A stretch of DNA of 49,222 bases from a virus. Of this stretch, positions 96-49,222 are shown piece by piece (position 1 is the stretch's first letter; each line of letters begins with the position of its first letter). A model generated the notes under the pieces. It did no database searches, had not been told where the DNA came from, and saw only the letters and a program-made list of their open reading frames with translations. The stretch is from the IMG/VR virus record IMGVR_UViG_3300031553_000005, positions 1 to 49,222 of that record. The stretch is one strand, 5' to 3'. Both the position numbers and the translations under genes were made by a program.

Positions 96-127
96 CGCGA
101 CATGCCCGGCGATATGGACGAGAAGGA
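1..127. repeat. Terminal direct repeat, copy 1 (identical to 49096..49222): circular-assembly overlap or terminal redundancy
   Basis: cgtacgccgacgagatggag...gatatggacgagaagga occurs at both window ends; position 1 aligns with 49096 and 127 with 49222. Confidence 0.95.
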
Positions 128-19956: not shown

Positions 19957-20134
19957 GTTGTTGCAATCGTGCCACAACCGGCACTTTCCCACTGACAATT
20001 GCCATACCTCTGCCGCATGATGGAATAGAAGGGTTGATCGTCGACTCCGGAGGGGGACATCGGCGGTGATCACTTCTCCCGGGGCCTAAACTCCCCCCAG
20101 GGTTCCTCCCCGGGGACATAGTAGTCGGACCGAG

Positions 20135-20175
20135 CCCCCCGTTGTCACGTGACGGCAGCGGGGGGTTGTCTATTT
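20135..20175 (+). terminator. Terminator-like nested hairpin followed by T-rich tract
   Basis: CCCCCCG tt GTCACGTGAC ggcag CGGGGGG ttgtctattt; 7-bp GC stem enclosing a 10-bp palindrome. Confidence 0.45.
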
Positions 20176-20185
20176 GGAGGATGCT

Positions 20186-21368
20186 GTGGCGGCAAAGCTC
20201 AACATCGAGATGGTCGCTCCCCGGGATCTGAATCCCGCTGCATATAATCCCAGAAAAATCAGTGAGGAAGCCCTTCGGCGCCTGCGCCGCGGGATCCGCG
20301 AGTTCGGAATGGTGGACCCCATCGTGGCGAGGCGTAAGGGCAAGGTCGTCATTGGTGGCCACCAGCGGCTACGAGCTGCCATCGAGGAGGGGATAACCGA
20401 GGTACCCGTGGTGTTCCTATCAGGCCTGAGCGAAGAGAAGGCCAAGGCGCTGAACGTCCTGCTGAACAACCCGGGCGCCCAGGGCGAGTGGGACACCGGG
20501 AAACTTGAGGAGTTGCTTTCCGAGCTGGACGCCGACGGATTCGACATAACACTGACCGGATTCGATGACGACGAACTCGCCAAGATGCTCAACCGTGGAG
20601 ACGGGAGTGAGGACGAGTTCGACCCCGAGCCCCCCACGAAGCCGAAGTCGAAGCGCGGCGAGGTGTACGAACTCGGACCGCACCGCCTGATGTACGGGGA
20701 TGCGACGAGCGCGGAGGACGTGGGGATTCTTCTGGCCGGGGTGGAACCCCACCTCATGGTCACCGATCCGCCATACGGGGTGGGATACTCTCCGGAGTGG
20801 CGAGCCCAGGCCGGTGTCAACCGCAACAAGAAGAAGCTGGGGAACATCACCAACGACAACCGTGCCGACTGGCGTGAGGCCTGGGCACTCTTCCCTGGCT
20901 CAGTCGCCTATGTGTGGCACGAAGCCCTCCATGCACCAGTAGTGCTGGAGAGCCTCATCGCGGTCGGATTCCAGGTGCGAAGCCAGATTATCTGGGTCAA
21001 GGACCGGTTCGCTCTTAGCCGAGGCCACTATCATTGGCAGCACGAGCCCTGCTGGTATGTGGTCAGGGGGGGGGGGGCACTGGACCGGAGGACGCGGGCA
21101 GTCGACGGTGTGGCACATCCCGGCACGAGAGGACTCCGGCCATGGGCATGGAGCCCAGAAGCCGGTCGAGGCCATGCGGCGCCCGATGCTTAACAATTCC
21201 TCCCCGGGGCAGGCTGTATACGACCCCTTCGTCGGTTCCGGCACAACCATCATCGCAGCCGAGCAGACAGGAAGGGTCTGCTATGCGATGGAGATCGACC
21301 CGGGTTACTGCGATGTGGTGCGGAGACGCTATGCCGAGTTCACGGGCAGGCAGGAGCTCATGCCGTGA
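20186..21368 (+). pseudogene. ParB-like N-terminal domain fused to N6A/N4C DNA methyltransferase; frame broken at a G12 tract
   Basis: GTG at 20186, 5 nt after GGAGG. ParB-like VIGGHQRLRAAIEEG. Motif IV LMVTDPPYGV in frame 2. After GGGGGGGGGGGG the family sequence continues in frame 0 (GQSTVWHIP...HGAQKPVEAM...VYDPFVGSGTTIIAAEQTGRVCYAMEIDPGY). Confidence 0.8.
21066..21077 (+). repeat. Homopolymeric G12 tract
   Basis: Counted directly: ggtca + 12 g + cac. G11 or G14 would fuse the two methyltransferase halves. Confidence 0.95.
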
Positions 21369-21946
21369 GCACGGCGAAGAAGTCGAAGAAGAAGGCTGCC
21401 GCCAAGAAGAAGGCTCCAGCGAAGAAGAAAGCGCCAGCACGGAAGAAGAAGAACAAGACCGCGACCAAGAAAAAGACGGCCACGAGGAAGAAGAAGGCTC
21501 CGGCTAAAAAGAAGGTCGTGAAGAAGTCCTCAGCCAAGAAGGCGACCGCGAAGAAGAAGGCTCCGGCTAAAAAGAAGACCGCCGCCAAGAAAAGCAAGGG
21601 TGGACGGCCGCCGCTCAAACTCGATAAGCGGCAGATCGAGACCCTAGCCAAGATCAACTGCACCCATGAAGAGATAGCTGCCGTCATGGGCTGCTCGACC
21701 GACACAATCGCTCGCCGTTATGCGGAGCTAATAAACAAGGCTCGACTGGACGGAAGAAGCAGTCTGCGCCGTGCCCAGTGGGCGAAGGCGCTTGGCGGCA
21801 ATCCCACGATGTTGATTTGGCTAGGCAAGCAGGAGCTGGGGCAGAGAGACCGCCTCGAGCACGAGCACTCCGGGCCCGATGGAGGACCCATCCCGGGGCA
21901 GATCAACGTTCGACTGGTCAAGTCTGATGAGCCTGGCGACGGTTGA
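21365..21946 (+). CDS. terS: Terminase small subunit with about 78-aa Lys/Ala-rich histone-H1-like N-terminal extension
   Basis: KKAPAKKK-type repeats, then GGRPPLKLDKRQIETLAKINCTHEEIAAVMGCSTDTIARRY...GGNPTMLIWLGKQELGQRD (TerS HTH pattern); immediately upstream of terL. Confidence 0.7.
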   Translation: MSTAKKSKKKAAAKKKAPAKKKAPARKKKNKTATKKKTATRKKKAPAKKKVVKKSSAKKATAKKKAPAKKKTAAKKSKGGRPPLKLDKRQIETLAKINCTHEEIAAVMGCSTDTIARRYAELINKARLDGRSSLRRAQWAKALGGNPTMLIWLGKQELGQRDRLEHEHSGPDGGPIPGQINVRLVKSDEPGDG

Positions 21947-23132
21947 GGTCGAACTCCCGGAGGCCCTGAGCTTCCTGCTCGACCCCCCCCTGGGGAGTGT
22001 CCGCTACCGGGTGGCCTACGGAGGGCGGGGGAGTGCTAAGTCCTGGAACTATGCCCGGGCGCTCCTGCTCCACGGCACCCAGACACCCCTAAGAATCCTC
22101 TGCGCCCGGGAATACCAGGTCTCCATCCAGGATAGTGTCCACCAGCTACTATCCGACCAGGTGAGCGCAATGAGCCTGGACGGATTCTATGCGGTGCAGA
22201 AGAACGCTATCACCGGCATGAACGGCACCGACTTCCTCTTCAAGGGACTCCGAAGGAACATCCGGGAGATCAAGTCGACCGAGGGCATCGACATCTGCTG
22301 GGTGGAGGAGGCCGAGGCCGTCAGTGACCAGTCCTGGCGGATCCTGATCCCCACGGTCCGTAAGCCCGGCTCGGAGATCTGGGTGTCGTTCAACCCCGCC
22401 CTGGCATCTGATCCCACCTATCGCCGCTTCGTTCAGGATCCCCCCTCCCGTAGCATCGTCCGGTTTGTGTCCTGGAAGGACAACCCCTGGTTGCCGGAGG
22501 TGCTCCAGAACGAGGCCGAGGAGCTCCGCCGGAAAGATCCCGAGGCCCATGCCCACGTCTGGGGGGGCGAGCCCTGGCAGCGCTCTGACGCCCAGGTGCT
22601 GGCCGGCAAGTGGACGGTCGAGGACTTTGAGCCCCTGGAGAGCTGGGACGGTCCCTACTTCGGTGGCGATTGGGGCTTCGCCCTGGACCCCACCGTCCTC
22701 GTGAAGGTCTGGATCGCGGACTCTCGGCTCTACCTCGAGTACGACAACGGCGCCCCCCAGATGACCCTGGATGATATCGAACGAGAGTGGCGCAAGGTCC
22801 CGGATGCCGGCAAGTACGTGATCCGGGCGGACAGCGCGAGGCCGGAGACGATCAACGAGATGGCCTCCCGCGGCTGGCGTATCGAGGGCGTGAAGAAGTG
22901 GCCGGGATCCGTCGAGGACGGGATCGAACACCTCCGTAGCTATGAGAAGATCGTCATCCACCCGCGGTGCCGGCGGGCCCGGGAGGAGGCCCGGCTCTGG
23001 AGCTACAAGACCGACCCCCGCACCGACGACGTGCTGCCCAAGCTCAAGGACGGCTTCGAGCACGTCTGGGATGCCGTCCGCTATGCCCTGGCACCGATCA
23101 TCATGAAGGGCACGAACTTCATGTTCCGATGA
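21927..23132 (+). CDS. terL: Terminase large subunit (PBSX/Terminase_3-like)
   Basis: Walker A YGGRGSAKS, Walker B-like ICWVEEAE, nuclease half GGDWGF...IRADSARPE...VWDAVRYA. Alternative upstream start at 21879. Confidence 0.85.
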   Translation: MSLATVEVELPEALSFLLDPPLGSVRYRVAYGGRGSAKSWNYARALLLHGTQTPLRILCAREYQVSIQDSVHQLLSDQVSAMSLDGFYAVQKNAITGMNGTDFLFKGLRRNIREIKSTEGIDICWVEEAEAVSDQSWRILIPTVRKPGSEIWVSFNPALASDPTYRRFVQDPPSRSIVRFVSWKDNPWLPEVLQNEAEELRRKDPEAHAHVWGGEPWQRSDAQVLAGKWTVEDFEPLESWDGPYFGGDWGFALDPTVLVKVWIADSRLYLEYDNGAPQMTLDDIEREWRKVPDAGKYVIRADSARPETINEMASRGWRIEGVKKWPGSVEDGIEHLRSYEKIVIHPRCRRAREEARLWSYKTDPRTDDVLPKLKDGFEHVWDAVRYALAPIIMKGTNFMFR

Positions 23133-23755
23133 CGATCGCCTGCGTACTCCGAAGCGGTGGCGATTTCGACCGCCGGTGGGTAGAAGCCCTGAGAGTTGGC
23201 ATGGAGCTGCATGCCCCCGTGCATCGGTTCATCTGTCTCACCGACACCTCTTCAGAGCCCGACGACATCCCGCTCGAGCATGATTGGCCGAAGTGGTGGT
23301 CGAAGATGGAGCTCTTCCGCCCTGGGCTCTTCAGTGGACCTGTGCTGTACGTGGACCTGGACACGCTACCGGTGGGGGACCTCTCGCAGATTGCCGGCTA
23401 CCGCGGTCCGCTGGCGATGCTCAGCGACTTCTACAAACCGAGCAGGGCGCAGAGCGGGGTGATGGCCTTCACGCCGGGCCCGGTTACCGAGGGCCTATGG
23501 GAGATGTGGATCGCCAATACCGCGATGCAGATACACCGCTACCGCGGGGATGGGGAGTGGCTGCACGCCCACTGCGGTCCCGATCGGCTGCAGGAGCTCT
23601 TCCCGGGCCAGATCGTGAGTCTGAAAACACACTGCAAGCCACCGAAAGCGAAAGGGCCGCCGAAGGGGGCGAGACTGGTGTGTCTGCATGGTAGGCCGCG
23701 TCCCAACAGCCCAAAGGCAGGCTGGGCATACGACCTGTGGAAGGAGCGAGCATGA
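23129..23755 (+). CDS. Glycosyltransferase, GT-A fold-like (DxD)
   Basis: ATGA overlap with terL stop; WWSKMELFRPGLFSGPVLYVDLDTLPVGDL...SGVMAF...GDGEWL. Confidence 0.6.
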   Translation: MTIACVLRSGGDFDRRWVEALRVGMELHAPVHRFICLTDTSSEPDDIPLEHDWPKWWSKMELFRPGLFSGPVLYVDLDTLPVGDLSQIAGYRGPLAMLSDFYKPSRAQSGVMAFTPGPVTEGLWEMWIANTAMQIHRYRGDGEWLHAHCGPDRLQELFPGQIVSLKTHCKPPKAKGPPKGARLVCLHGRPRPNSPKAGWAYDLWKERA

Positions 23756-24456
23756 TCGCCTGGTGGTCACAGTCTCCCAAGCCGGGCAACCTGGGGGATG
23801 TACTCACTCCAATCATCCTCCAGGGAATGGGAGTGGATGTGAAGTGGGCACCCCGCAGAAAAGCCCGTCTGCTGGCCATCGGGAGCATCATACGCTTCGC
23901 AGTCCCCGGACAGTATGTGTGGGGCTCGGGAGCTATGTGGTCACACGATGTTCCGAGCCCCCGGGCTCGTTACCTGGCGGTGCGAGGACCCTTGACCCGG
24001 GCGGTGGTGCAACGTGCCGGCGGGGAATGTCCGCAAGTCTACGGGGATCCGGCGTTGCTACTTCCCCGGATCCACAATGGAGCGGTGGAGCAGCAGCACG
24101 ACGTTGCGATCGTGCCGCATTACGTGGATGAGAGGGGCGTGCGGGCCCGGTATCCGGGCTGGCACATCATAAGTTCGCTGCGGGCCAATCCCCTCCAGGT
24201 GGTGGATGAGATCCGCTCCTGTAAGGCCATTCTATCCTCTTCCCTGCACGGCATCATCGTCGCTCATGCCTATGGGATCCCCGCGGCCTGGGTCCGCTTC
24301 TCAAACCTGCTGGACGGCGATGACACCAAGTTCCGGGACCATGCTGCCGCGGTGGGAGTGAGTCTGCCGCCCTACAAGAGCCCGGAGAAGGCCGAGCCCG
24401 TACTGGGAACACTGGATACAGGTCCTCTGATGAAGGCACTGGAGGCGATACGGTGA
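23752..24456 (+). CDS. Polysaccharide pyruvyl transferase-like protein
   Basis: PGNLGDVLTPIIL near the N-terminus, AIGSI, and SSSLHGIIVAHAYGIPAAWV near the C-terminus. Confidence 0.6.
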   Translation: MIAWWSQSPKPGNLGDVLTPIILQGMGVDVKWAPRRKARLLAIGSIIRFAVPGQYVWGSGAMWSHDVPSPRARYLAVRGPLTRAVVQRAGGECPQVYGDPALLLPRIHNGAVEQQHDVAIVPHYVDERGVRARYPGWHIISSLRANPLQVVDEIRSCKAILSSSLHGIIVAHAYGIPAAWVRFSNLLDGDDTKFRDHAAAVGVSLPPYKSPEKAEPVLGTLDTGPLMKALEAIR

Positions 24457-25022
24457 ACGTGGTCCTGGTCAGCTTCTACACCCCGACCTGGGAGTATCCG
24501 GCGCACGCTCGGAGGCTAAGAAACGAGTGTGAAGTACTCGGCGTGGACCACCACATCGTTGAGAGAGAGGACGTGAAAGGCTGGCTGGCCAATACCCGTC
24601 AGAAGCCGCTGGTCCTGTTGGAAGCACTGCGCGAACTGAAGCGGCCCATCCTATGGACCGACGTGGACGGGTCCCTCTGCCGTAGGCCGGTAGGGCTGCG
24701 AAAGGACGTTGACTTCATGGCCCGGGCCCGACCGCCCAAGCAGGAACGGGCCTGGCACGTGGACACGCTCTACTTCAACACCACTCCGAGGGCTGAGGAG
24801 CTGTTGGAGCTGTGGATTGAGCATCTCACCGATCACTCCGATGGTCTGGCCCTGCATCAAGCATGGCAGTCCGGACGCTGGGGGGGGCGGTCTGCCCCAC
24901 TGCCTGCGGAGTACTATCCGGGTGCGAAGGCCCCTGTCATCCAGTACCGACGCTCGACGAGTCCGGGGAAGCGGGCCGATCAACGCCGGCTCAAGAGGGA
25001 GGGGCGTTATGCACCACTCTGA
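24453..25022 (+). CDS. Nucleotide-diphospho-sugar transferase-like protein
   Basis: GTGA overlap; VVLVSFYTPTWEY...NTRQKPLVLLEALRELKRPILWTDVDG. Confidence 0.45.
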   Translation: MNVVLVSFYTPTWEYPAHARRLRNECEVLGVDHHIVEREDVKGWLANTRQKPLVLLEALRELKRPILWTDVDGSLCRRPVGLRKDVDFMARARPPKQERAWHVDTLYFNTTPRAEELLELWIEHLTDHSDGLALHQAWQSGRWGGRSAPLPAEYYPGAKAPVIQYRRSTSPGKRADQRRLKREGRYAPL

Positions 25023-25584
25023 GCGCCGGGCCCGGGAGTTGCTCGGACGGCTGGACATCGTGAGCCCCTATGGTGCCGAGATAGGTGTCTGGAAGGGGGA
25101 GATGTCCCGAAACCTGCTCATGCTTAATCCCCTTCTCCGGCTGCTGATGGTCGACAACTGGAAGTCAGCAAGAGAACGGAGCAAGGCATACCGGATATCC
25201 GGGGACTACATCGCACGGGTAAATGTCCAGCGCATGGGACTGGCCAAGAGACAGGCCCATGAATCCACCGAGTTTGCTGCCGGGCGCCGTACAATTCTGT
25301 ATACCGATTCACTGGACGCTGCGGGTCTCGTCCCGAAGGCCTCCCTGGACTTCGTGTTCATCGACGCCGAGCACACCTATGAGGCCGCGACCGCCGACAT
25401 CCAGGCGTGGTTGCCGGCCATCAAACCCGGAGGGCTGCTGAGTGGCCATGACTACAGCCCGCCGGGTGAACTCAGCCCGAAAGGCTGGCCCGGGGTGGTC
25501 AGGGCCGTGGACGAGTTCGTAGAGAGAGGCGGCCTAACCCTCGACCGTGGAGAGCAGGCGACATGGTTCATCCGGCTGCCATAA
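25009..25584 (+). CDS. Class I SAM-dependent methyltransferase (Methyltransf_24 / O-MT family 3-like)
   Basis: GAEIGVWKGEMS...LDFVFIDAEHTYEAATADIQAWLPAIKPGGLLSGHDY...GVVRAVDEF. Confidence 0.65.
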   Translation: MHHSERRARELLGRLDIVSPYGAEIGVWKGEMSRNLLMLNPLLRLLMVDNWKSARERSKAYRISGDYIARVNVQRMGLAKRQAHESTEFAAGRRTILYTDSLDAAGLVPKASLDFVFIDAEHTYEAATADIQAWLPAIKPGGLLSGHDYSPPGELSPKGWPGVVRAVDEFVERGGLTLDRGEQATWFIRLP

Positions 25585-26288
25585 ACACCCGCGACCAGTG
25601 GGCCGAGATCGCGATCGCCGCCTACTCGGCCATGGTCACTGATCGCATGCACTTTGCCCAGGCAGCCTACCGGGACGGGGAGTGGTACTGCATCGGCGGC
25701 AGCAGCGGGAAGACCATCAATGCCGAGGAGTTCAATCCCGAACTGGGGAACCTATTGGCCCGAACCCTACTCGAGCCTGTCGGCCAGTGGTGCGTGCTCT
25801 GGTGGAAGCATCCCAGGATGGGCAGGCAGGCATTCAACATCGCAAAGAAGTGGATCGCTACCCACAAGCCCGATGTGCGTTGGATTCCCGATCGCCCCAT
25901 CAGCCGGGCGAATGAGATCGGCATGGCCGCACCCTTCTGGCAGGCCTGCAGGAGTCGAAGGGTGGTGGCTGTCGGACCTGCACACATGGCCAATCTGGAT
26001 CTGTTCGACATCGCCGAGCATATCATCGTGCCCCCCAGGGTGGCCTGGAAGCACACCAACAGTGTCTGCGAGCAGGTCCTGACCGTCTATCGACCGCATG
26101 ATCTGATTCTCTTTGCCGCCGGCATGGGCTCGAACCTGATGATATGGAAGCTCTGGCCGCAGCTGAGAGGCAAGGCAACGCTGCTGGATATCGGAGCCGC
26201 GCTGGACCCCTACTGTGGCCACTTCAGCCGAGGCATCTTCCGCGAACCCGGATGGCAGGAGAACATCATGCCCAGGAATATCCCGTGA
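25563..26288 (+). CDS. GT-D (DUF1792)-like glycosyltransferase candidate
   Basis: YRDGEWYCIGG (compare the RxGDGE motif) and LFAAGMGSNLMIWKLW...ATLLDIGAALDPY. Confidence 0.4.
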   Translation: MVHPAAINTRDQWAEIAIAAYSAMVTDRMHFAQAAYRDGEWYCIGGSSGKTINAEEFNPELGNLLARTLLEPVGQWCVLWWKHPRMGRQAFNIAKKWIATHKPDVRWIPDRPISRANEIGMAAPFWQACRSRRVVAVGPAHMANLDLFDIAEHIIVPPRVAWKHTNSVCEQVLTVYRPHDLILFAAGMGSNLMIWKLWPQLRGKATLLDIGAALDPYCGHFSRGIFREPGWQENIMPRNIP

Positions 26289-27307
26289 GGCTGCTCATCA
26301 CTGGGCACACGGGCTTCAAGGGCGCCTGGCTGAGCCTTCTGGCCGAACAGGAGGGCCACGAGGTGGGTGGATATGGTCTGTCCCGAACCGCCGGCCCGTC
26401 GTTTTATAAGGTGGCCCGCATCCGAGAGCACCTGGCCTTTGAGAGGCGAGAAGACGTTACGGACATGCTCGCACTCCGACAGGCGGTGGCCGCCTTCCGT
26501 CCTGAGGTTGTCTTTCATCTCGCGGCCCGCGCCATTCTCCTGGAGTCGTTCGGTGCCCCGGTGGGGACCATACGCAACAACGTGATTGGAACAGCCGCGG
26601 TCCTGGAAGCGGTAAGGCACTGCCCGGGTGTTGCTGGAACCGTCATTGTGACCACCGACAAGGTCTACCGCAACGACGGAAGAAGCGATGGATATAAGGA
26701 GACAGATCGACTGGGTGGACTGGATCCTTATGGAGCAAGCAAGGCGGCCGCAGAGCTGGTGGTGGACAGCTATCGACACACCTATGCCCTGAATGTTGCC
26801 ACGGCCCGGAGCGGGAATGTTATCGGAGGGGGCGATTGGGGACCGCGCAGGTTGGTACCCACCTGCTTGGAGGCATTCAGCAGGGGCGAAGAGCCGACCA
26901 TCTATGATGCTGCCCGCCCGTTCCTGCATGTGCTGGATACCCTGCGTGGATACCTGCTGCTGGCTGAGAGGCTATGTGTGGAACCGGAGATCTCCGGGGG
27001 ATACAACTTCGGTCCCGGTCAGGTAACTCCACTGTATGAGGTTGCTGACCATATCGCAGCCCGCATGGGTGGGTTCTACCGGAAGGCGGGCAAACCCCCG
27101 GGCGAAGCATCCATGCTTGCGCTTGATAGCAGCAAGGCCCGAAAGGTCCTCGGGTGGGCGCCACGATGGGGCATCGCCGAGATACTGGATCGGACCGTGG
27201 AGTGGTATCAGGCATGGCGTCTGGGCTCAGACATGGAACTAGTGAGTATCGAGCAGATTGACGCACACCGCAGTGAGTCGGTCCGCGAAGAGGATGTGGT
27301 GGTATGA
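26285..27307 (+). CDS. Extended SDR NDP-sugar 4,6-dehydratase (CDP-glucose 4,6-dehydratase-like)
   Basis: GTGA overlap; LITGHTGFKGAWLSLLL-type N-terminus (ITGHTGFKGAWL), VFHLAA, TTDKVY, YGASKAAAE (YxxxK). Confidence 0.7.
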   Translation: MRLLITGHTGFKGAWLSLLAEQEGHEVGGYGLSRTAGPSFYKVARIREHLAFERREDVTDMLALRQAVAAFRPEVVFHLAARAILLESFGAPVGTIRNNVIGTAAVLEAVRHCPGVAGTVIVTTDKVYRNDGRSDGYKETDRLGGLDPYGASKAAAELVVDSYRHTYALNVATARSGNVIGGGDWGPRRLVPTCLEAFSRGEEPTIYDAARPFLHVLDTLRGYLLLAERLCVEPEISGGYNFGPGQVTPLYEVADHIAARMGGFYRKAGKPPGEASMLALDSSKARKVLGWAPRWGIAEILDRTVEWYQAWRLGSDMELVSIEQIDAHRSESVREEDVVV

Positions 27308-27867
27308 GGGGCATCGTGTTGGGCGGCGCAGCCTGTATCTGGAAGGACGTGGACCGGCTGGAGGCCATGATCGGCCAGCAGTGGAATGAGATCGTGGTGG
27401 CGGCGAACGATATCGGGTGTCATTGGCCGCGGGAGATGCATGGCTGGTGTTCACTCCATCCCGAGAAGATGGACCAGTGGGTGAAAATCCGGGAGCGTAA
27501 GAGGCTGCCCGGAGGATTCATCACCTATGCAAAAGACGGGAGAAAGAGAAGGGGCATCGACGCCACGGTGCGCCACCGATTCGGAAGCGGCTCGTCAGGT
27601 CTACTGGGCGTCTCAGTGGCCCTACATCTTGGATGTACGAAGATCGTGCTGTGCGGAATCCCCATGACCCGGGAGCCCTACTTCGCGGAGTCCGAGGTCC
27701 ACCCTAAGGGTAAGGCATTCTCCTCGGCGGACTCCCACTGGAGAAAGTGGCTGCTGTATGCGGAGAAGATGCAGGGCACCGTTAAGTCGATGAGTGGACG
27801 CACCAGGGACCTACTTGGAGAACCTACACTGGAATGGTTGGGTGAAGACGATGGCAAAGACCCCTGA
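27304..27867 (+). CDS. DUF115/Maf-like (MptE-like fold) putative glycan transferase
   Basis: ATGA overlap; IVLGGAACIW...VVAANDIG...GSGSSGLLGVSVALHLGCTKIVLCGIPM. Confidence 0.35.
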   Translation: MRGIVLGGAACIWKDVDRLEAMIGQQWNEIVVAANDIGCHWPREMHGWCSLHPEKMDQWVKIRERKRLPGGFITYAKDGRKRRGIDATVRHRFGSGSSGLLGVSVALHLGCTKIVLCGIPMTREPYFAESEVHPKGKAFSSADSHWRKWLLYAEKMQGTVKSMSGRTRDLLGEPTLEWLGEDDGKDP

Positions 27868-29347
27868 GTATCGAGGCGGCGGATGGTATCAGCTTCCCGA
27901 TGGGAGCAAAGTCAAAGGTAGGCAGGCAGCCCTTCGGGCGACGAACACGGAAGCCGATACGCATACGCTTCAACGGTTGGACTTCGCTTCCCGGGCGGGC
28001 CTACAGTACGGAGAAGATCGGGATATCTACAAGGTTGCGGGCTACAAGAAGACGCCGACCTTCAAGGATTATTGGGCCTACTACGACCGCCACCCCATCG
28101 CAGGCCGCATTGTCGACCTTGCAGCCAAGACCACCTGGCGTGAGCCCCCGGATATCGTTGAGCCCGAGAAGGAAGATGGCACCGAGTTCACTAAGGCGGT
28201 CACGGAGATGGCGGATCGGCTAAAGCTATGGAGCCGGTTCGAGTCTGCGGATAGGCTGAGCCGTATCGGTCAATACAGTGTGCTGTTCATCGGCGTGAAG
28301 GGCGGAACAGATGATATGAGCATACCGCTGGAACGTCTCTCGGATCCCGATGATGTGGCCTATCTGATGCAGTACTCTGAGCAGTATGCGAAGATCGTCG
28401 AATGGGTGACCGACCCTACCGACGAGCGATTCGGCCTGCCCAAACTCTACGAGATCGACTTCTCCCGCCGGAACTCCAAGTTCAGGGTCAGACGCTCCAA
28501 GGTCCACTGGTCGAGGGTGCTGCACATCGCAGAGGACCCTCTCGAGGACGACGTATATGGACGCCCCATCCTCAAGCGTGTCCTCAACACGATCTTCAAC
28601 GATGACAAGGTGGATGCCGCGAGTGCGGAAGCGTTCTGGCAACTCGCGGACAAGATACTCCAACTGAAGATCGACCCTGAAGCGCAACTGTCCGAGGACG
28701 ACAAAGATGATGTAGACGAGAAACTGCAGTTACTCTACCACGACCTGCGCAAGTATTTCACCCTTCAGGGTGGCGAACTCTCCTGGCTGGGTGGAGAGAC
28801 CGCCGACCCTACGGCGATATCCGAGATCCTGGCCATGAAGATGGCAGCTGGCAGTGGATATCCCCGGAGAATCCTGTTCGGGGCCGAGCAGGGAGAACTT
28901 GCCTCCAGTCAGGACGAGCGCAACTACCGGGGCACGATATCCGAGCGGCAGGAACAACATGCAGAGCCCAACATGGTCCGGGCCTTCATTGATCGGCTCA
29001 TAGAACTCGGTGCGCTACCGACACCAGGACCAGAGGGCTATGATGTGTTGTGGCCCGAACTCTACGAGGCCACCGACGAGGAGAAGGCCACGACCGCCAA
29101 GGCTCGTGCCGACACCGCCAAGATACTCACACCCATAGGGGGCGATCCCTATGAGCTAGTCACGGTCGACGACGAGGGCATGGTACGGTTGCGCACCTCA
29201 GAAGAGGTGTGGGCCGAGCGGGAAGCCATGCCCGAGCCCGAACCCGGATTCATCCTTCCGCCCGAACCCGGGGGCGAAGAAGAAGAAGAAATCGCAGCTC
29301 GTAGCCGCTGGTGGCCACAGAGGAAGAGGAGGCCGCATGAAAGCTGA
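27851..29347 (+). CDS. Portal protein (DUF1073-type)
   Basis: 498 aa. Acidic, Glu-rich C-terminus. Lies upstream of the Mu F-like gene. YGRPILKRV segment. Alternative GTG start at 27794. Confidence 0.7.
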   Translation: MAKTPEYRGGGWYQLPDGSKVKGRQAALRATNTEADTHTLQRLDFASRAGLQYGEDRDIYKVAGYKKTPTFKDYWAYYDRHPIAGRIVDLAAKTTWREPPDIVEPEKEDGTEFTKAVTEMADRLKLWSRFESADRLSRIGQYSVLFIGVKGGTDDMSIPLERLSDPDDVAYLMQYSEQYAKIVEWVTDPTDERFGLPKLYEIDFSRRNSKFRVRRSKVHWSRVLHIAEDPLEDDVYGRPILKRVLNTIFNDDKVDAASAEAFWQLADKILQLKIDPEAQLSEDDKDDVDEKLQLLYHDLRKYFTLQGGELSWLGGETADPTAISEILAMKMAAGSGYPRRILFGAEQGELASSQDERNYRGTISERQEQHAEPNMVRAFIDRLIELGALPTPGPEGYDVLWPELYEATDEEKATTAKARADTAKILTPIGGDPYELVTVDDEGMVRLRTSEEVWAEREAMPEPEPGFILPPEPGGEEEEEIAARSRWWPQRKRRPHES

Positions 29348-29519
29348 AGACCTGGCCAAGCTCGGACAGAACGCAAAGGCCTTCGCCAAGGCCTATGTGC
29401 AGCTGAAGGAAGAGCTGATCCGTCAGGGGGTTGAGGCTGAGGAGGCGAAGGTGGTCGCTCGCTCGGCGGCCATGATGACCATCTTCAATCCCGACGAGGA
29501 GAAGCCGTGGGACACGTAG
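29337..29519 (+). CDS. Small helical hypothetical protein
   Basis: 60 aa, overlapping portal stop and Mu F-like start. Confidence 0.45.
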   Translation: MKAEDLAKLGQNAKAFAKAYVQLKEELIRQGVEAEEAKVVARSAAMMTIFNPDEEKPWDT

Positions 29520-31504
29520 TCTGTGTTCACCATGCCCACAATAGGGCTGCCGGTCCTTCTTCCCGCACTCACCGTATCGTTCGGCGCATTGCGGACCGCT
29601 ACGGATCCAACATCGCGGACGCCTTCCTGACTGCTCTCTCCCGATTGGATGCGGGCATCGATAAGGTGGAACTGTCAAGTGCGGTCGCCTCAGGGGATGT
29701 CAATGCCATCGTGGCCGCTATCGGCCCGTCGCGGTTGGGGGCGATCTTCGCCGGCGGTGACTCACTTTCGAAGGTCTTGCAGGACACGGCGGCGGCCAGC
29801 GGCGGGTTGGGTATGGATGTTCTGAGCGAGGTCACCGGTATGCAGGCCAGCTTCAATGCCGTGGATCCCAATGTGGTGATGTTCGCCCGCGAGAGGGCTG
29901 CCCGCCTGGTGGTCGATGTGACCGAGGACGTGATCGAGGCTGTGCGTATCGTGATTGCTGCGGGTGCTGCTGAGGGGCTGACCACCGTGCAGCAAGCGCG
30001 AGCAATCCGGGAGGTTGTGGGCCTGCCGCCCAACTGGGCCGAGGCTCCCTCACGGCTTGCCTCCGAGCTTCGTGCGGGGCGATTCACCTCCAGCCGACGC
30101 CTTTCAGCAATCGACAAAGCCCGTATCCGCAAGAGACTGAAAGAGGGGACGATCACCGAGGACTTCATCTCCGAGATACAGGCGAATTACGCCCGCAGCC
30201 TGACCAATCGCAGAGCACTCAACATCGCCCGCACCGAGAGCGCTACCTCGGCCAATCATGGTATGCGTACCGGCTGGAGACAGGCACGAGATCAGGGTGT
30301 GCTGTCCGAGGACGTGAAGCGCATCGTGGTAGTCACCCACGACGAGGAGTTGAGGGAGACACATGCCGCCGTCCCGTTCATGAATCAGGGGGGCGTAGGC
30401 CTGGATGAACCCTTCGAAACCCCCTGGGGGCCTCTCATGGGCCCGCCCTGGGATCCCGACCCTTACAACTGCCTACTGCCCGGCACTCCCGTAAGGGGTC
30501 GGTTCGTGGCTGGGGTTCGTGCCCACTATCGCGGCGAAGTAATCACCATCCATACTGCCGGGGGGCGCAAGCTCGCCGTCACCTCGAATCACCCAGTACT
30601 CACCCGCGACGGCTTCGTTGCGGCCCAGCGTGTGCGCGATGGACACCAGCTTCTCTGCTACAGCGGGGACGCGCATGGGGCAACCGCGCCGGGGGCGCAC
30701 GAACACGGGGCGCCAGCCGCTGTTGACGATGTGTTCCATGCGCTCGGCAAGCTTTGGGGCCAGGAGCTCCGAGACCTTTCTGTTGAAGATCTCCACGGCG
30801 ACGCGGCAGGCACTGATGGTAAGGTCGATGTTGTACGGCCCGACAGGGTATTGCTGGTCGACGGGCTCGCCCAACCTCTCGATGGCGGCGGCAATAGCAT
30901 TCTCGTACTTACCACGCCGCCCACCATTTCGGTAGCGAGTGAGGGCTCGGGCGGCCATGGCCTCGGAGCTGTCCACGCGACCGCGCGCAGCGGCGTGGGC
31001 GGGGCCGAGCTGCCTGCGAACGGCTTCAGGGTCCGCCTTGAGTTGTTGCCATTTCAGCTTCTCGGCTTCGGAGCGCCCCCGGAGTTGTATCCCGGCGCGT
31101 TTGAGTCGATGGGCAATCACGCTACGGTCGTGCCCGGTTCTCTCGCTGATCGCCTTGACCGATTCGCCCGAGAGATAGGCGGCGCTGATGCCGGGCACGT
31201 CGATCTTCTTCCAAAGGTGGTGCTTCCGCCCAACGGAGGACTTCATCGGCCGGGCCGGCAGCCTCCATTCGATACGCCTCTGTCTCACGGTGGCAGTACT
31301 GACTCCAAGCTCGCTCGCGACCTCTTGGAGCGTCATGCTGGATTGGTAGAGCTGGACGAAGTGGTCGCGGTCGATGTCAGCTCGTGGCATGGGCATGTGT
31401 ACGACCTCCAGTCGGTTACGGGCTTTAATATCGCATCTGATGTCTTTGTTAGCAACTGCCGCTGTGGTGAAGGGCTGATCTTCCCTGGGGGCGGGGTGCT
31501 GTGA
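29507..31504 (+). CDS. Mu F / SPP1 gp7-like minor head protein interrupted by an intein
   Basis: Phage_Mu_F-like NRRALNIARTESATSANHG...; the N-extein ends PWDPDPYN and the C-extein resumes CRCGEGLIF, recreating the family NCRC motif. Confidence 0.8.
   Translation: MGHVVCVHHAHNRAAGPSSRTHRIVRRIADRYGSNIADAFLTALSRLDAGIDKVELSSAVASGDVNAIVAAIGPSRLGAIFAGGDSLSKVLQDTAAASGGLGMDVLSEVTGMQASFNAVDPNVVMFARERAARLVVDVTEDVIEAVRIVIAAGAAEGLTTVQQARAIREVVGLPPNWAEAPSRLASELRAGRFTSSRRLSAIDKARIRKRLKEGTITEDFISEIQANYARSLTNRRALNIARTESATSANHGMRTGWRQARDQGVLSEDVKRIVVVTHDEELRETHAAVPFMNQGGVGLDEPFETPWGPLMGPPWDPDPYNCLLPGTPVRGRFVAGVRAHYRGEVITIHTAGGRKLAVTSNHPVLTRDGFVAAQRVRDGHQLLCYSGDAHGATAPGAHEHGAPAAVDDVFHALGKLWGQELRDLSVEDLHGDAAGTDGKVDVVRPDRVLLVDGLAQPLDGGGNSILVLTTPPTISVASEGSGGHGLGAVHATARSGVGGAELPANGFRVRLELLPFQLLGFGAPPELYPGAFESMGNHATVVPGSLADRLDRFAREIGGADAGHVDLLPKVVLPPNGGLHRPGRQPPFDTPLSHGGSTDSKLARDLLERHAGLVELDEVVAVDVSSWHGHVYDLQSVTGFNIASDVFVSNCRCGEGLIFPGGGVL
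30470..31456 (+). mobile_element. Intein (329 codons) in the Mu F-like gene
   Basis: Begins CLLPGTPVRG (block A), contains VTSNHPVLT (block B TxxH), and ends HGHVYDLQSVTGFNIASDVFVSN followed by +1 Cys. Confidence 0.75.
30473..31396 (-). CDS. Antisense-encoded homing-endonuclease candidate: two HTH segments plus Vsr/DUF559-like PD-(D/E)xK nuclease
   Basis: ATG at 31396 preceded by GGAGG (8-nt spacer). High GC3 on this strand. HTH-like segments LQEVASELGVSTATVRQRR and VKAISERTGHDRSVIAHRLKRAG. Nuclease-like YENAIAAAIERLGEPVDQQYPVGPYNIDL...VAVEIFNRK...GWRPVFVR. Confidence 0.65.
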   Translation of the reverse strand: MPMPRADIDRDHFVQLYQSSMTLQEVASELGVSTATVRQRRIEWRLPARPMKSSVGRKHHLWKKIDVPGISAAYLSGESVKAISERTGHDRSVIAHRLKRAGIQLRGRSEAEKLKWQQLKADPEAVRRQLGPAHAAARGRVDSSEAMAARALTRYRNGGRRGKYENAIAAAIERLGEPVDQQYPVGPYNIDLTISACRVAVEIFNRKVSELLAPKLAERMEHIVNSGWRPVFVRPRRGCPMRVPAVAEKLVSIAHTLGRNEAVAGEYWVIRGDGELAPPGSMDGDYFAAIVGTNPSHEPTPYGSAGQ

Positions 31505-31698
31505 GCACAACTCAAACCGAGAGGCTCACTGAGTCGGCCCGCAATGCACTGGCGTATTTCGAGCGGCGTCTACGTGATGGGCACAGTGGCAGCATTACGT
31601 TTGAATGTTTAGAGGGTGGTGTGCGGGACATCAAAGAAAGCCGCACAGTTAAGTTAAAGGAGTTGAACGGGAAGAAGTGGCTATCTCATAACACTTGA
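31501..31698 (+). CDS. Hypothetical protein
   Basis: GTGA overlap with the Mu F-like stop; 65 aa; lower GC. Confidence 0.45.
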   Translation: MSTTQTERLTESARNALAYFERRLRDGHSGSITFECLEGGVRDIKESRTVKLKELNGKKWLSHNT

Positions 31699-31848: not shown

Positions 31849-33267
31849 ATGGCCGAACACATACAGGTAGTGACCAACCTCTCCGGTCCGATCCGTCGTG
31901 AGAAGTACATGGGCCGTGAACACGTTGTGGTCTCTGCGGTGCTCGTGAAAGGCATGGTACTCCACAACAACCTGGGCCGCACCTATCTGCCCCCCGAGGA
32001 CATCACCCCTGAATGGGCGGAAACGGCCAACGGAGCACCGGCGGTCTCCGATCATCCCAACCGTTCCGCCCGCAATCCCGACGTGCTGAACAAGATGGGT
32101 GTGGGCTTCCTCTACCGGGCCCGGGCGCAGAACGGGGCGCTCAAGGCCGACGTGTTCATCGATCCGGATCGCACCAGTGAAGTGGAGGACTTGGGTGTCA
32201 TTCTCGCCAAGCTGGACAAGGACGAGAAGGTGGAAGTCTCTACCGGGTTTCCAGTGACCCTCGAAGAGTCCTCGGGTGTGCTGAACGGAGAAGAATACGA
32301 CAAGATCATCCACCCCGCCGGGTTCGACCATCTCGCGATATTCGCAGAGAACGTTGGAGCCTGTTCGGTGGATGACGGATGCGGACTGGCACAGAACAAG
32401 GACGACCTGCCGGATCCACCCGATTCCCCCGAGGCCGTTGCCGAGTCTTCAGCCTGGAAGACATTCCTGCAGAAAGCCGCTCGATTCCTCGGCTTCCATC
32501 CATCGGACAACGAATCCGACGAGGACCGCAAGGAGCTTCTACGCAGTGCCCTGGTGGAGCGATTCGGGGCAGACGACCGGTATCTCTGGGTCGATTCAAT
32601 CTACAGCGAGGACGGGTTGGTAGTGTTCGAAGTAGAAAGTCGTAGTGGAGGTGATTCGGGGCTCTTCCGGGTGACCTTCGAGGTCGATGAAGCAGGGACC
32701 GTGACGTTGGGAGAGCCCGAAGAAGTCCGTCGGGTCACCACGTTCGAGCCCGTGGCCAACGCCGCGGAAACACCCCAAGACAAGGGGAGCAACATGAACA
32801 GGGACGAGATGATCGCACAGCTGGTCAAAGCCGGCCCGCTCGAGAAGGAGGCGCTGGAGAAGCTGAGCGATTGTCAGCTCGTAGCGCTTTCCGGGGCAGG
32901 CGAGGTGGAGGGCGTCGAAGAGGGCGATACCCTCGCGTGGCAGAAGGTCCGCGAGTGGAGGGAGAAGTTCGAGTCGCTCGATGCCGAGACCAAGAACGCG
33001 CGTCAGGCCGAGGAGAAGGAGCGGACCGGTCTTCTGGACGACCTGCTCTACAACTCCAAGCAGCTGCCGTGGTCGGAGACCGAGATCCGGGGCATGGACA
33101 TCGTGCAGCTCCGCAAGGTCCACAAGACCGTGTTCCCGAAGCGTGCCGACTTCAGCGGTCGGGGCGTGCCGGCCAGTGAGACGGGCTCCTACGACTTCGT
33201 GCATCCGATCATGGACGGGCCGGCAGGTGCTTCCGTCCTCGACGGTGACCGGAAGGGGGTCAACTAA
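31849..33267 (+). CDS. Prohead protease/scaffold fusion (DUF2213-like N-terminus, acidic helical C-terminus)
   Basis: Lies between Mu F-like and capsid genes. N-terminus ...GREHVVVSAVLVKGMVLHNN...WAETANGAPAVSDHP. The C-terminal half is coiled and acidic. Confidence 0.55.
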   Translation: MAEHIQVVTNLSGPIRREKYMGREHVVVSAVLVKGMVLHNNLGRTYLPPEDITPEWAETANGAPAVSDHPNRSARNPDVLNKMGVGFLYRARAQNGALKADVFIDPDRTSEVEDLGVILAKLDKDEKVEVSTGFPVTLEESSGVLNGEEYDKIIHPAGFDHLAIFAENVGACSVDDGCGLAQNKDDLPDPPDSPEAVAESSAWKTFLQKAARFLGFHPSDNESDEDRKELLRSALVERFGADDRYLWVDSIYSEDGLVVFEVESRSGGDSGLFRVTFEVDEAGTVTLGEPEEVRRVTTFEPVANAAETPQDKGSNMNRDEMIAQLVKAGPLEKEALEKLSDCQLVALSGAGEVEGVEEGDTLAWQKVREWREKFESLDAETKNARQAEEKERTGLLDDLLYNSKQLPWSETEIRGMDIVQLRKVHKTVFPKRADFSGRGVPASETGSYDFVHPIMDGPAGASVLDGDRKGVN

Positions 33268-33701
33268 TGGCGCGGAACACGATCCTACTCAGGGGCAAGG
33301 CGCGTGAAGAAGGCCGCCTGGCGGATTGCTACGTGCTCACGCCCGGGATGCTCGTGGAGCTGGCAGATGCCGGCACGGTCATCCCCCATACCACCGACGG
33401 TGGTCAGGCAGCGCCCATCTTCGTGCGCGAACAGTGGGAGAACGACGGCGCCGACATCGACGACGACATCGCCCTCGATGACGAAGCCATCCTCATCTTC
33501 CCCGAGATGGGAGCGAAGATCAACGCTTACACCTCCGACACGATCGAAGAAGGCGACACGGTCTGTTCGGACGGAGAGGGCGGTGTGCGGCTGGCCGATT
33601 CCGGCGATTACGTGATCGGGACCGCCGCAGAGGACTCAGACCTCACTGGCACCAACGGTCGCGTCGAGATCTATGTCTGGCCGCTCGGCGTGTCGGCCTA
33701 A
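33267..33701 (+). CDS. DUF2190-like head decoration protein candidate
   Basis: 144 aa directly upstream of the major capsid gene; TAATG overlap. Confidence 0.5.
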   Translation: MARNTILLRGKAREEGRLADCYVLTPGMLVELADAGTVIPHTTDGGQAAPIFVREQWENDGADIDDDIALDDEAILIFPEMGAKINAYTSDTIEEGDTVCSDGEGGVRLADSGDYVIGTAAEDSDLTGTNGRVEIYVWPLGVSA

Positions 33702-33719: not shown

Positions 33720-34745
33720 ATGACAAACCAGACTCTTGGCGGGCCGATCATCACCAAGATCCCTCGCAACTTCATCCGTAACGGGGTGGTCGACCGTCGC
33801 GCGATGTATCAGGAACTCGTGGAGAACGAGGTTCTGCGCGAGGACGAGACCCGAGAGATCGAGGAGGCACTCACCCGCGTGGCAAGGCGCGACCTGGTGG
33901 CCGTGGCCGACCTGCGTCAGATGGGACTCACGGTGAACCTGCGAAACATCGGGGTGACCACCTACGAGTTCGACCGCGTCACGCCCGTAGGTGAGGCGAC
34001 GCAGTCGATGTCCATCCTCAACCTCGGCGACAGGGACCTGGTCACCTTCGCCCGCACGGCGATCCCCGTACCGGTGACTGCCTCGCAGTTCGAGCTCGAC
34101 GCCCGTAGGGCCGCTGCCGGGACTACGCTCGGTGAACCCGTGAGCCTCACGAACGTCGAGGAGCACACCCGAGCCGTGGCGGAGAAGCTGGAGGACACGC
34201 TGGTGAACGGCTCCGATGTGGTGCTGGGCTCGAACGATCTGCCCGGCTACACCAACTTCACGAGCCGTGAGCAGCTGTCCTTCTCGGACGTGGCCTGGAA
34301 CGATATCTCGGGTGCTCCCGAAGCGGCCGTGATCGATGTGCTGGCCATGCGGGCGGCGCTTCGGGAAAACGGTTACACCGGACCCTACATCGTCTATGTC
34401 CCGAGTAACTTCGACGGGACGATCGACGAGGACTACAAGTCCGAGAGCGACCGGACGCTGCGGGAACGGTTGATGTCCATCAACGGAGTCGAGCAGGTGA
34501 AGGTGCTGCCCTCCCTGGCCGACGACAACGTCCTGATGGTGCAGATGACCCGGTCGGTCGTGCAAACAGCGATCGGGCAGGACATCACCACCGTGACCTG
34601 GGACATGATGGGCGGGCTCGCGAACTACTGGGCCATCCTCGCGGTGATGACGTTTGCCCTCAAGGTCAGTGCGGCTCGCGCCCCGCTGTCCTCGGGCACA
34701 CTGCCATCTCTGACGACGGCCAGCGGTATCGCACACCTGGCCTAA
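33720..34745 (+). CDS. Major capsid protein (HK97 fold, encapsulin/linocin-like family)
   Basis: Strong SD AGGAGGAGAGAGG; 341 aa; synteny and family-like segments (NLGDRDLVTFARTAIPVPV..., YIVYVPSNF..., LMVQMTRSVVQ...). Confidence 0.75.
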   Translation: MTNQTLGGPIITKIPRNFIRNGVVDRRAMYQELVENEVLREDETREIEEALTRVARRDLVAVADLRQMGLTVNLRNIGVTTYEFDRVTPVGEATQSMSILNLGDRDLVTFARTAIPVPVTASQFELDARRAAAGTTLGEPVSLTNVEEHTRAVAEKLEDTLVNGSDVVLGSNDLPGYTNFTSREQLSFSDVAWNDISGAPEAAVIDVLAMRAALRENGYTGPYIVYVPSNFDGTIDEDYKSESDRTLRERLMSINGVEQVKVLPSLADDNVLMVQMTRSVVQTAIGQDITTVTWDMMGGLANYWAILAVMTFALKVSAARAPLSSGTLPSLTTASGIAHLA

Positions 34746-48734: not shown

Positions 48735-49190
48735 ATGTCGAAGCGAACGAAGAGGGGCGAGAACTCGCGGTCGGCCGGAGCGCCGAAGGCGCGCGAGATC
48801 GGCCTGTTCAACGAGTACATCGACGCGGTAACGGGGCTGTCCCAGACCGAGGAGCGGTTCAAGGCCATGGTCGAGCAGCTCCGTGCCAAGCGTGAGGAGA
48901 TCGAGGCCGACAAGAACCGTGCGTCCCGGTTCCAGTCGTACCTGAAGTGGCAGGCCTCGCTGGACTACGGGAGCCCCGAGAAGGTGAAGCGGGACCTCGC
49001 GCAAATCGAGGACACCCTGGCCAAGCTCGAGGGCACGTACAAGTGGCCGGCGCCCGGCGAGCATCTGAAGAAGATGACCCTGCCGGAGCTACGCGCGTAC
49101 GCCGACGAGATGGAGCTGCCGGACGCGTCGAAGTACAAGACGAAGGCGGCGCTGCTCGCGGCGATCGAGAAGGCGTTCCCGGAGGAATAA
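48735..49190 (+). CDS. Hypothetical protein with C-terminal Rho_N/HeH-like motif
   Basis: GAGAGGAGA SD; C-terminus MTLPELRAYADEMELPDASKYKTKAALLAAIEKA. Confidence 0.5.
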   Translation: MSKRTKRGENSRSAGAPKAREIGLFNEYIDAVTGLSQTEERFKAMVEQLRAKREEIEADKNRASRFQSYLKWQASLDYGSPEKVKRDLAQIEDTLAKLEGTYKWPAPGEHLKKMTLPELRAYADEMELPDASKYKTKAALLAAIEKAFPEE

Positions 49191-49222
49191 CGCGACATGC
49201 CCGGCGATATGGACGAGAAGGA
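49096..49222. repeat. Terminal direct repeat, copy 2
   Basis: Base-for-base identical to 1..127. Confidence 0.95.

Follow-up and report, generated by a model that had tools for sequence, protein, structure and literature searches.

Glycosylation of virion proteins has been reported for the mycobacteriophages Che8, Corndog and Myrna, and to our knowledge no phages other than a few mycobacteriophages have yet been shown to have it. The Corndog gp38/Che8 gp110 cluster comprises glycosyltransferases (GTs) needed for capsid glycosylation. In Corndog, a phage of cluster O, a TylF-type methyltransferase and three GTs (gp35-gp38) are encoded between the gene for the portal and that for the protease (PMC4351075). 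Two later papers, which summarise Freeman 2023, place Corndog among the phages with glycosylated virion proteins and describe gp38 as required for capsid glycosylation (PMC12363180, PMC12619734). Here we analyse a cassette of seven genes, g1 to g7, that occupies the space between the large terminase (terL) and portal genes of IMG/VR virus record IMGVR_UViG_3300031553_000005; the stretch examined, positions 1 to 49,222 of that record, is called the window below. The main new result is comparative: the g7, g1 and g5 families are recurrently tied to phage head genes, and the slot that the cassette occupies is variable. We put at about one half the probability that the cassette carries out a late, cytoplasmic glycosylation of virion proteins, analogous to that by Corndog gp35-38 but with GTs that are not homologous to those of Corndog.

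The two loci are alike in that a Methyltransf_24 O-methyltransferase and several GTs are inserted inside a run of head-assembly genes, and g4 and Corndog gp35 belong to the same Pfam family. They differ in the point of insertion, which is between portal and protease in Corndog and between terL and portal in the window. The Corndog GTs are weakly GT2-like/GT25-like, unlike those of the window, and the window cassette has two further genes, for a nucleotide-sugar dehydratase and a pyruvyl-transferase-like protein. The host lineage differs as well, as the nearest cultured relatives of the window are Brevundimonas phages. Furthermore, glycosylation of virion proteins has been reported for Corndog, whereas for the window it is predicted from the genes.

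A second point of comparison is the "putative morphogenetic" late operon pmgO-pmgP-ppp-pmgQ of phage P1 (L012:3144-5702), which is under the late promoter LPpmgL and in which a serine/threonine phosphatase gene, ppp, lies between pmgO/pmgP and pmgQ. Citrobacter phage phiNP has an equivalent trio, genes 031-030-029, between Rz and terS. The g1 protein is a clear homologue of PmgQ (about 32% identity to P1 pmgQ in tblastn), of phiNP_030 and of P7 HdmD. P1 PmgO and PmgP are both weak matches to MptE-like/DUF115, and alignments with the g7 profile were obtained for PmgO (E=1.4e-3) and phiNP_031 (E=7e-3). Hence, the late-controlled pairing of a GT8-like with a Cst-II/DUF115-like enzyme is common to the window and to P1/phiNP. 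The P1 and phiNP genes are nevertheless found elsewhere than between terL and portal, and they are not accompanied by genes for a GT-D enzyme, dehydratase, methyltransferase or pyruvyl transferase. We also considered g5 as a relative of P1 PmgP or phiNP_029 and found no relation. Judging from these similarities, the P1 pmgO-pmgP-pmgQ set looks like a compact version of such a cassette.

Three further kinds of system share some of these features. Bacterial cytoplasmic protein O-glycosylation employs the same three folds (GlyE-type GT8, the GT-D enzyme dGT1 and Maf/DUF115), all of them soluble, which work one after another on a protein destined for self-assembly or export. No primary initiating enzyme of the GtfA/B type or confirmed Maf type was identified in the cassette, no acceptor repeat is known for it, and its context is a phage head operon. 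The modules of O-antigen-converting prophages (GtrABC, Oac) are likewise glycan-modifying genes borne by temperate phages. They consist of membrane proteins, lie beside int/att and are expressed in the lysogen, whereas the cassette shows no membrane-like segment, has the integrase 20 kb away and belongs to a late operon. Phage DNA glycosylation (T4 alpha/beta-glucosyltransferases; 5mYOX- or ThyS-associated GTs) also relies on phage GTs, sometimes near ParB, methyltransferase and terminase genes. However, it uses other GT families and a base-hydroxymethylating enzyme, which scans of most of the larger window ORFs did not find. In the literature searched, which included pmgQ and virion or capsid glycosylation beyond mycobacteriophages, we found no description of the g7/g1/g5 gene set or of its link to head modules. 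An earlier reading of this DNA from the sequence alone had taken a cassette at this position to be undescribed. It overlooked the Corndog precedent, and its claim stands for the particular gene set in the literature searched.

Organization of the cassette

The cassette consists of seven co-oriented open reading frames (ORFs) that span 23129-27867 and fill the terL-portal gap. The sequence-only reading had reported the same genes, coordinates and start-stop overlaps, all of which we saw again, and every peptide motif that it quoted is present. The overlaps are ATGA at 23129, 23752 and 27304 and GTGA at 24453 and 26285. Further overlaps, of 14, 22 and 17 nt, join g3 to g4 (which starts with an ATG at 25009), g4 to g5 and g7 to the portal gene, respectively. 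When genes were called independently on two additional metagenome assemblies of this phage, the same seven were obtained. In the cultured Brevundimonas phage MaInes, terL and portal directly adjoin with nothing between them, in agreement with the view of the sequence-only reading that these genes are normally neighbours. The gap in the window is therefore a real insertion relative to this cultured relative.

The tight packing of genes extends beyond the cassette. All junctions from the ParB-methyltransferase gene (20174) to the end of the MuF-like gene (31504) overlap, by 4 to 137 nt, and a consensus scan of 20167-30753 found no promoter-like or terminator-like site on the plus strand. Because of these overlapping junctions and of the lack of an internal site in the consensus scan, we consider the cassette to be part of the packaging and head operon, with its GT genes embedded in the virion structural operon and predicted to be co-expressed with it. 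The earlier description of a late-operon cassette for glycan synthesis or decoration is thus backed by the gene junctions and by the enzyme families described below.

The GC content of the cassette is 62.0%, compared to 63.3% for the whole window and 62.35% for the portal-to-tail region. It is equal to or lower than this in 24% of all stretches of the same length, and the segment 26401-26700 has 60.0%. These values are within the normal range of the window, so that the lower GC content claimed by the sequence-only reading, and the argument for horizontal acquisition that was built on it, did not hold up. Exchange of the cassette is backed instead by the differing contents of the slot in sister phages (see below).

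No membrane-like hydrophobic window of 19 residues was found in g1-g7, and all seven predicted proteins appear to be soluble. The cassette contains no flippase, polymerase or Gtr-type gene.

Recurrence of the cassette families in head modules

Of the cassette genes, g7 is the most widely conserved. A scan of IMG/VR with the g7 family profile returned 57 loci, 40 of them non-redundant, and a scan of a genome collection with the same profile returned 4 loci only. A head gene, labelled by BLAST, is found within three genes of the g7 homologue at 32 of the 40 non-redundant IMG/VR loci (directly adjacent at 17), a count that is inflated, to the detriment of the case for a virion target, as short IMG/VR contigs are recognised as viral partly via their structural genes. 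In view of this ascertainment bias, contigs of at least 30 kb were counted too. In these, a head gene is within three genes of the g7 homologue in 9 of 14 cases and within five genes in 13 of 14, which corresponds to binomial P values of about 2e-3 and 1e-5, respectively, against generous background rates.

The usual order of genes around the g7 homologues is portal, MuF, (g1), g7, scaffold, capsid. When the two nearest genes on each side were assigned to Pfam families, the Gp13-like capsid protein led the list with 15 members among 136 neighbours, and methyltransferases, Mu_F, portal proteins, sulfotransferases and acetyltransferases were also frequent. The g7 homologue of Paracoccus phage Pkon1 is the gene directly after that for the capsid, and the homologue in a Rhodobium gokarnense prophage is the gene directly before that for the tail tube. 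The g5 family is confined to metagenomic phage contigs, where its members lie between MuF and scaffold/capsid genes or upstream of a Phage_portal_2 gene. The phages in which g5 homologues share the head module with homologues of g1 and g7 have differing terminase, portal and capsid families. The core shared across lineages is g1, g5 and g7; g2 is shared with one other lineage (a 56% identical homologue is present in cassette L005), and g3 and g6 are specific to the lineage of the window.

Sister phages with the same lineage of portal, MuF and capsid proteins have other genes upstream of portal, in a slot that follows terL wherever terL is on the contig. The contents of the slot in L018, L020, L021 and L024 include a DegT aminotransferase, sulfotransferases, a fusion of GFO/IDH/MocA and hexapeptide acetyltransferase domains and a full-length pyruvyl transferase. 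Several methyltransferases and, in L021, an N6/N4 DNA methylase are present as well, and a family of the sister cassettes, X250, weakly resembles GT9 heptosyltransferases. By its gene content, the terL-portal slot thus behaves like a hypervariable glycan locus, and the window is, as far as can be judged from these comparisons, one instance of a widespread and variable cassette of predicted glycan genes tied to phage head genes.

A separate observation concerns a 61-kb phage contig. Directly upstream of its g7 homologue and of the genes for MuF and capsid, it encodes (L016:1174-10537) a transaldolase, an HldE-like kinase/nucleotidyltransferase, a transketolase that is split, dehydratases/epimerases and methyltransferases. 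This set looks like a heptose-type nucleotide-sugar pathway.

Among cultured phages, a g7 homologue was found only in Pkon1 and a g5 homologue in none, and the g1 homologues belong to P1-like phages, Xanthomonas/Stenotrophomonas jumbo phages and some lambdoid phages. The tblastn matches of g1, g5 and g7 include no mycobacteriophage. The near absence of g5 and g7 homologues from GenBank phage isolates is an argument for an accessory metabolic island, in which genes acquired by chance boost or divert the nucleotide-sugar metabolism of the host and have no dedicated phage target. The finding that P1 pmgO, pmgP and pmgQ, whose function is not known, are non-essential in the laboratory (PMC10695390) would fit such an island too. 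However, the same families turn up in comparable positions in many phages that are unrelated, the genes are tightly coupled translationally, and most of their products are transferases and not precursor-supply enzymes, all of which makes a metabolic island very improbable. As relatives of the core enzymes stand beside capsid genes in many unrelated phages, a variable glycan is probably put by these phages on their own particles.

Enzymes of the cassette

The assignments of the seven genes (Table 1) differ in how directly they were obtained. Of the seven calls made from motifs, the searches backed five (g1, g2, g4, g5 and g6), and that for g7 was backed at the level of the fold. On its own, g1 matches no Pfam family at E<=0.1 and hence gives no Glyco_transf_8 match at the gathering threshold. 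The profile of its family (A5), in contrast, matches solved GT8 structures, namely the Skp1 alpha-galactosyltransferase 6mw5 (E=4.2e-8), glycogenins (about 1e-4) and GlyE (5gvv, 7e-3), in alignments that span the DxD motif (L-D-L-D-T). The DxD transferase proposed by the sequence-only reading can thereby be narrowed down to a GT8-like enzyme homologous to PmgQ. The predicted pyruvyl transferase g2 is retained, with a PF04230 match that lies above the cut-off and covers profile positions 122-277 only, which is the C-terminal half; against the CsaB equivalog, g2 scores 18.6 bits, far under the cut-off of 213.

The g3 protein could not be assigned. It had been called a second nucleotide-sugar transferase, but there is only a DxD-like motif to speak for this call. 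No PHROG or NCBIfam match was found, the sole Pfam match is RecC_C at E=0.046, below the cut-off, a g3 profile gave no match in the PDB at E<=10, and hhalign found no relation to g1. The family is small, with just 10 clusters in 5.8 billion proteins.

The g5 protein had been described as DUF1792/GT-D-like. Neither g5 itself nor its model bears this out: g5 matches no family and gives no direct GT-D match, and a Foldseek search of the PDB with an AlphaFold2 (AF2) model of high confidence (pLDDT 93.5) gave nothing significant (best E=0.06, no GT-D in the top 50). The wider family does support the assignment. A profile search of 1.84 billion representatives yielded 1947 related clusters, and among 100 distant relatives 45 match PF22882 (GT-D-like) and 34 match PF08759 (GT-D). 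The resulting broad profile, A7, aligns to the dGT1 structures 4pfx/4phr (2.9e-11) and to 5v4a (1.2e-9) across the DGE motif. In other proteins, g5-type domains are repeatedly fused to Methyltransf_24, Methyltransf_23 or FkbM domains, which fits the overlapping g4-g5 pair of the window. The call of g4 as a methyltransferase dependent on S-adenosylmethionine (SAM) is supported by its Pfam match.

The calls for the last two genes were also upheld. The g6 protein is a predicted member of the CDP-glucose 4,6-dehydratase family, as its TIGR02622 equivalog score is above the cut-off; it also matches the Pfam families GDP_Man_Dehyd and Epimerase and contains GHTGFKG and YGASK motifs. For g7, the DUF115/Maf-like assignment holds at the level of the fold. 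In a Foldseek comparison of the g7 model with the PDB, the top five matches are all Campylobacter jejuni Cst-II (E=7e-5, probability 1.0, TMq 0.58-0.61), followed by MptE-like HPPK, and the viral fold neighbours in BFVD are labelled DUF115 or MptE-like. The sequence profile matches Cst-II only, and weakly so, with SSGL...CGIPM of g7 aligned to ITSGV...SGIDF, and the Pfam MptE-like score of 14.1 bits is under the cut-off of 34.6. H52 is invariant and H145 nearly invariant across the relatives of g7. On the basis of the model, g7 is predicted to be a GT with the Cst-II/DUF115-like fold.

These enzyme families also bear on the question of whether the glycan is destined for DNA. GTs that glycosylate 5-hydroxymethylcytosine (5hmC) are widespread in phages, often on contigs with ParB-like, methyltransferase and terminase genes (10.1101/2023.12.21.572611). 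In the window, a ParB-N6/N4 DNA methyltransferase gene and the terminase genes lie immediately upstream of the cassette, and the PHROG family matched by g4 carries the label "DNA methyltransferase". The GTs might accordingly decorate modified bases with a tailored mono- or oligosaccharide ahead of packaging, as a protection of the genome against restriction and CRISPR. However, neither a TET/JBP dioxygenase nor a thymidylate-synthase-type hydroxymethylase nor a C5-methyltransferase turned up in the window in searches with Pfam or PHROG, which covered most of its larger remaining ORFs, and no TET or thymidylate-synthase-like enzyme that would make hydroxymethylated cytosine or uracil was present among the 136 neighbours of g7 homologues. 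This exclusion is incomplete, since several ORFs of the window have no family. In addition, the known DNA GTs (JGT/TarP-like GT-A enzymes with an R...DDD...EDY/F motif and T4-like GT-B enzymes) are unlike GT8, GT-D and Cst-II-like enzymes, and tailoring by pyruvyl, sulfo, amino and acetyl groups is typical of surface glycans. DNA hypermodification is therefore quite unlikely.

Proposed acceptor and mechanism

The hypothesis that we favour is that the seven genes form a late, wholly cytoplasmic glycan-building module, translationally coupled to terminase and portal. In this module, g6 would deoxygenate a CDP-hexose to give a 6-deoxy or 4-keto sugar donor, and sugars would be added stepwise by g1 (GT8-like), g5 (GT-D-like) and g7 (Cst-II/DUF115-like), with g3 possibly acting as a fourth transferase. 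The resulting small glycan would be O-methylated by g4, functionally paired with g5, and might be pyruvylated by g2. The acceptor would most likely be a virion protein (a capsid, decoration, portal or tail subunit), modified in the cytoplasm before or during assembly, and the progeny particles would then bear a lineage-variable glycan coat. The order of the reactions, the identity of the sugars and, above all, the acceptor are what we infer from the gene content and context. Virion proteins are the likeliest acceptor because the cassette has no component for a lipid carrier or export, because its expression is obligatorily late and because unrelated lineages repeatedly show the link to capsid, scaffold and portal genes. 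Furthermore, cytoplasmic protein glycosylation has paradigms in all three assigned GT families, which we count in favour of this acceptor: glycogenin, the Skp1 enzyme Gat1 and GlyE in GT8, dGT1 acting on the Fap1 adhesin in GT-D, and Maf acting on flagellin in DUF115.

Several observations weigh against this hypothesis. The evidence for the acceptor is indirect. Corndog gp36-38 have no BLAST or profile (hidden Markov model) similarity to g1, g3, g5 or g7; given the shared architecture, the cassette would work like the Corndog system and not be a member of it by descent. No glucose-1-phosphate cytidylyltransferase was found among the cassette genes and the other window ORFs scanned, and g6 thus needs the CDP-hexose pool of the host or has another substrate. 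As P1 can dispense with pmgO, pmgP and pmgQ, any role of these genes must be accessory. Finally, no acceptor signature was found, and the capsid protein showed no special extension rich in Ser/Thr. We considered its Ser/Thr-rich C-terminal stretch as an acceptor extension like that of Che8 and rejected it: the stretch lies inside the region (query residues 36-339) over which capsid proteins of Brevundimonas phages can be aligned, and these phages gave no tblastn match to g1, g5 or g7.

A further difficulty is that GT8 and GT42 also include classical enzymes of the outer core of lipopolysaccharide (LPS) and lipooligosaccharide, such as LgtC and Cst-II, and that pyruvyl transferases (PS_pyruv_trans) and CDP-hexose dehydratases, CDP-glucose 4,6-dehydratase included, are typical of polysaccharide pathways. 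These family relationships would be readily explained if the cassette modified the host envelope by altering lipid-linked intermediates of LPS core or O-antigen, capsule or exopolysaccharide at the inner face of the membrane. The changed cell surface could then lead to superinfection exclusion or to the release of progeny from debris. The weak GT9 resemblance of X250 in sister cassettes and the heptose-type pathway suggested by L016 point in the same direction. The arrangement of the genes does not: they are locked in a late head operon, lack a separate promoter and lie some 20 kb away from the integrase gene, and for these reasons a lysogen should not express them. Moreover, there is no membrane, flippase or Gtr-type component, and the conserved neighbours are capsid, scaffold and portal genes and not att or immunity regions. 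We therefore consider modification of the host envelope unlikely.

If virion proteins are indeed the acceptor, environmental phages whose hosts are probably Gram-negative would commonly have glycosylated particles, and the chemistry of the glycan would vary between lineages through methyl, pyruvyl, sulfo, amino and acetyl decorations. This would bear on the recognition of therapeutic phages by antibodies and innate immunity, on the adhesion of phages to mucus and biofilm, on the evasion of virion-targeting defences and on the reading of "auxiliary" sugar genes in viromes, and it would provide a testable function for P1 pmgO, pmgP and pmgQ. A g7-family gene beside scaffold and capsid genes is a simple genomic marker by which cultured phages can be chosen. 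More tentatively, the window may belong to a large, unrecognised class of virion glycosylation systems beyond the actinobacteriophages. Such a class could have the g7 family as its "capsid glycosyltransferase" core in the head operons of many unrelated tailed phages, often accompanied by a PmgQ-type GT8 and a GT-D/methyltransferase unit. Its tailoring genes would be exchanged rapidly, much as in an O-antigen-like locus for the virion surface, and P1 pmgO/P/Q would be a compact member.

Flanking genes and source phage

The positions of the cassette genes and of their neighbours, including two candidate acceptors, are given in Table 1.

Table 1. Predicted features of the packaging and head region of the window
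Feature	Position	Strand	Evidence and remarks
Promoter-like site	19992-20021	+	Consensus match only
Terminator-like hairpin	20133..20167	+	Strong; 14-bp stem, 9 G-C pairs; consensus match only; just upstream of late block
Putative small terminase subunit	21365..21946	+	By position; weak helix-turn-helix (HTH) matches only; lysine-rich N-terminus; 68-nt overlap with terL
Large terminase subunit, terL	21879..23132	+	Pfam Terminase_3 5.9e-42, Terminase_3C 2.5e-10; phrog_3717
g1, predicted GT8-like retaining-type GT	23129..23755	+	DxD motif YVDLDT; phrog_1962 2.5e-43
g2, predicted polysaccharide pyruvyl-transferase-like protein	23752..24456	+	PF04230 2e-12, 48.1 bits (cut-off 25.3)
g3, no family	24453..25022	+	Conserved W-x-D-V/A-D motif as sole clue
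g4, predicted SAM-dependent methyltransferase, Methyltransf_24 (TylF-like O-methyltransferase) class	25009..25584	+	PF13578 1.3e-17
g5, predicted GT-D (DUF1792)-like GT	25563..26288	+	Broad family profile only; D38-G39-E40 invariant
g6, predicted extended short-chain dehydrogenase/reductase, CDP-glucose 4,6-dehydratase family	26285..27307	+	TIGR02622 equivalog 1.5e-100, 336.8 bits (cut-off 278.45)
g7, predicted sialyltransferase-like GT, Cst-II/DUF115 (MptE-like, Maf-type) fold	27304..27867	+	AF2 model, pLDDT 96.8
Portal protein	27851..29347	+	Phage_portal_3 1.6e-40; phrog_146
MuF-like head morphogenesis protein	29507..31504	+	phrog_3517, phrog_15127; intein-like insert; end of uninterrupted overlapping block
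Head decoration protein	33267-33701	+	phrog_766; candidate acceptor
Major capsid protein	33720-34745	+	phrog_771; Linocin_M18/DUF6260; candidate acceptor

The source phage is temperate and siphovirus-like. The first 127 bp of the window (1-127) are repeated exactly at its end (49096-49222), and this terminal direct repeat indicates that the assembly is circular and complete, with a length of about 49.1 kb. An integrase gene is located at 1974-3083, and a CI-like repressor and a CII-like protein are encoded as well. The tail genes include those for a major tail protein, a tape-measure protein, Dit, Tal and a central tail fibre that is lambda-J-like. A protein of 1734 residues, encoded downstream of this fibre gene at 43225-48429, has no PHROG match at E<=1e-3.

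By capsid and portal, the closest cultured relatives are Brevundimonas phages: the MaInes capsid protein is 28.5% identical to that of the window and its portal protein 31% identical (E=1e-60). The window portal protein, used as a single query against IMG/VR, retrieved no relatives. More distant g7 homologues are found in phages or prophages of Rhodobium, Pseudaminobacter (P. salicylatoxidans) and Paracoccus, all of them Alphaproteobacteria. A 73% identical g7 homologue is present on a 5.7-kb contig that was binned to a Spirochaetaceae metagenome-assembled genome, an assignment that is unreliable as evidence for a host. A diderm host is plausible.

Two genes that flank the cassette have an unusual structure. 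At 20174-21368, ParB_N and N6/N4 DNA methyltransferase domains are split over two overlapping frames (20174-21193 and 21057-21368). The split is identical in two independent assemblies (L001 and L002), and it could reflect either a frameshifted pseudogene or programmed frameshifting. The MuF-like gene carries an intein-like insert of residues 322-650 (nt 30470-31456), which starts with CLLPGT and ends with ...HVYDLQSVTGFNIASDVFVSN|C. Nearly co-extensive with this insert is an antisense ORF of 345 amino acids (30473-31510, minus strand), which encodes HTH domains and weakly matches REase_MTES_1575. Over the insert, the third-position GC content is 0.76 in the antisense frame compared to 0.66 in the sense frame, and the antisense ORF may be a homing-endonuclease-like gene inside the intein.

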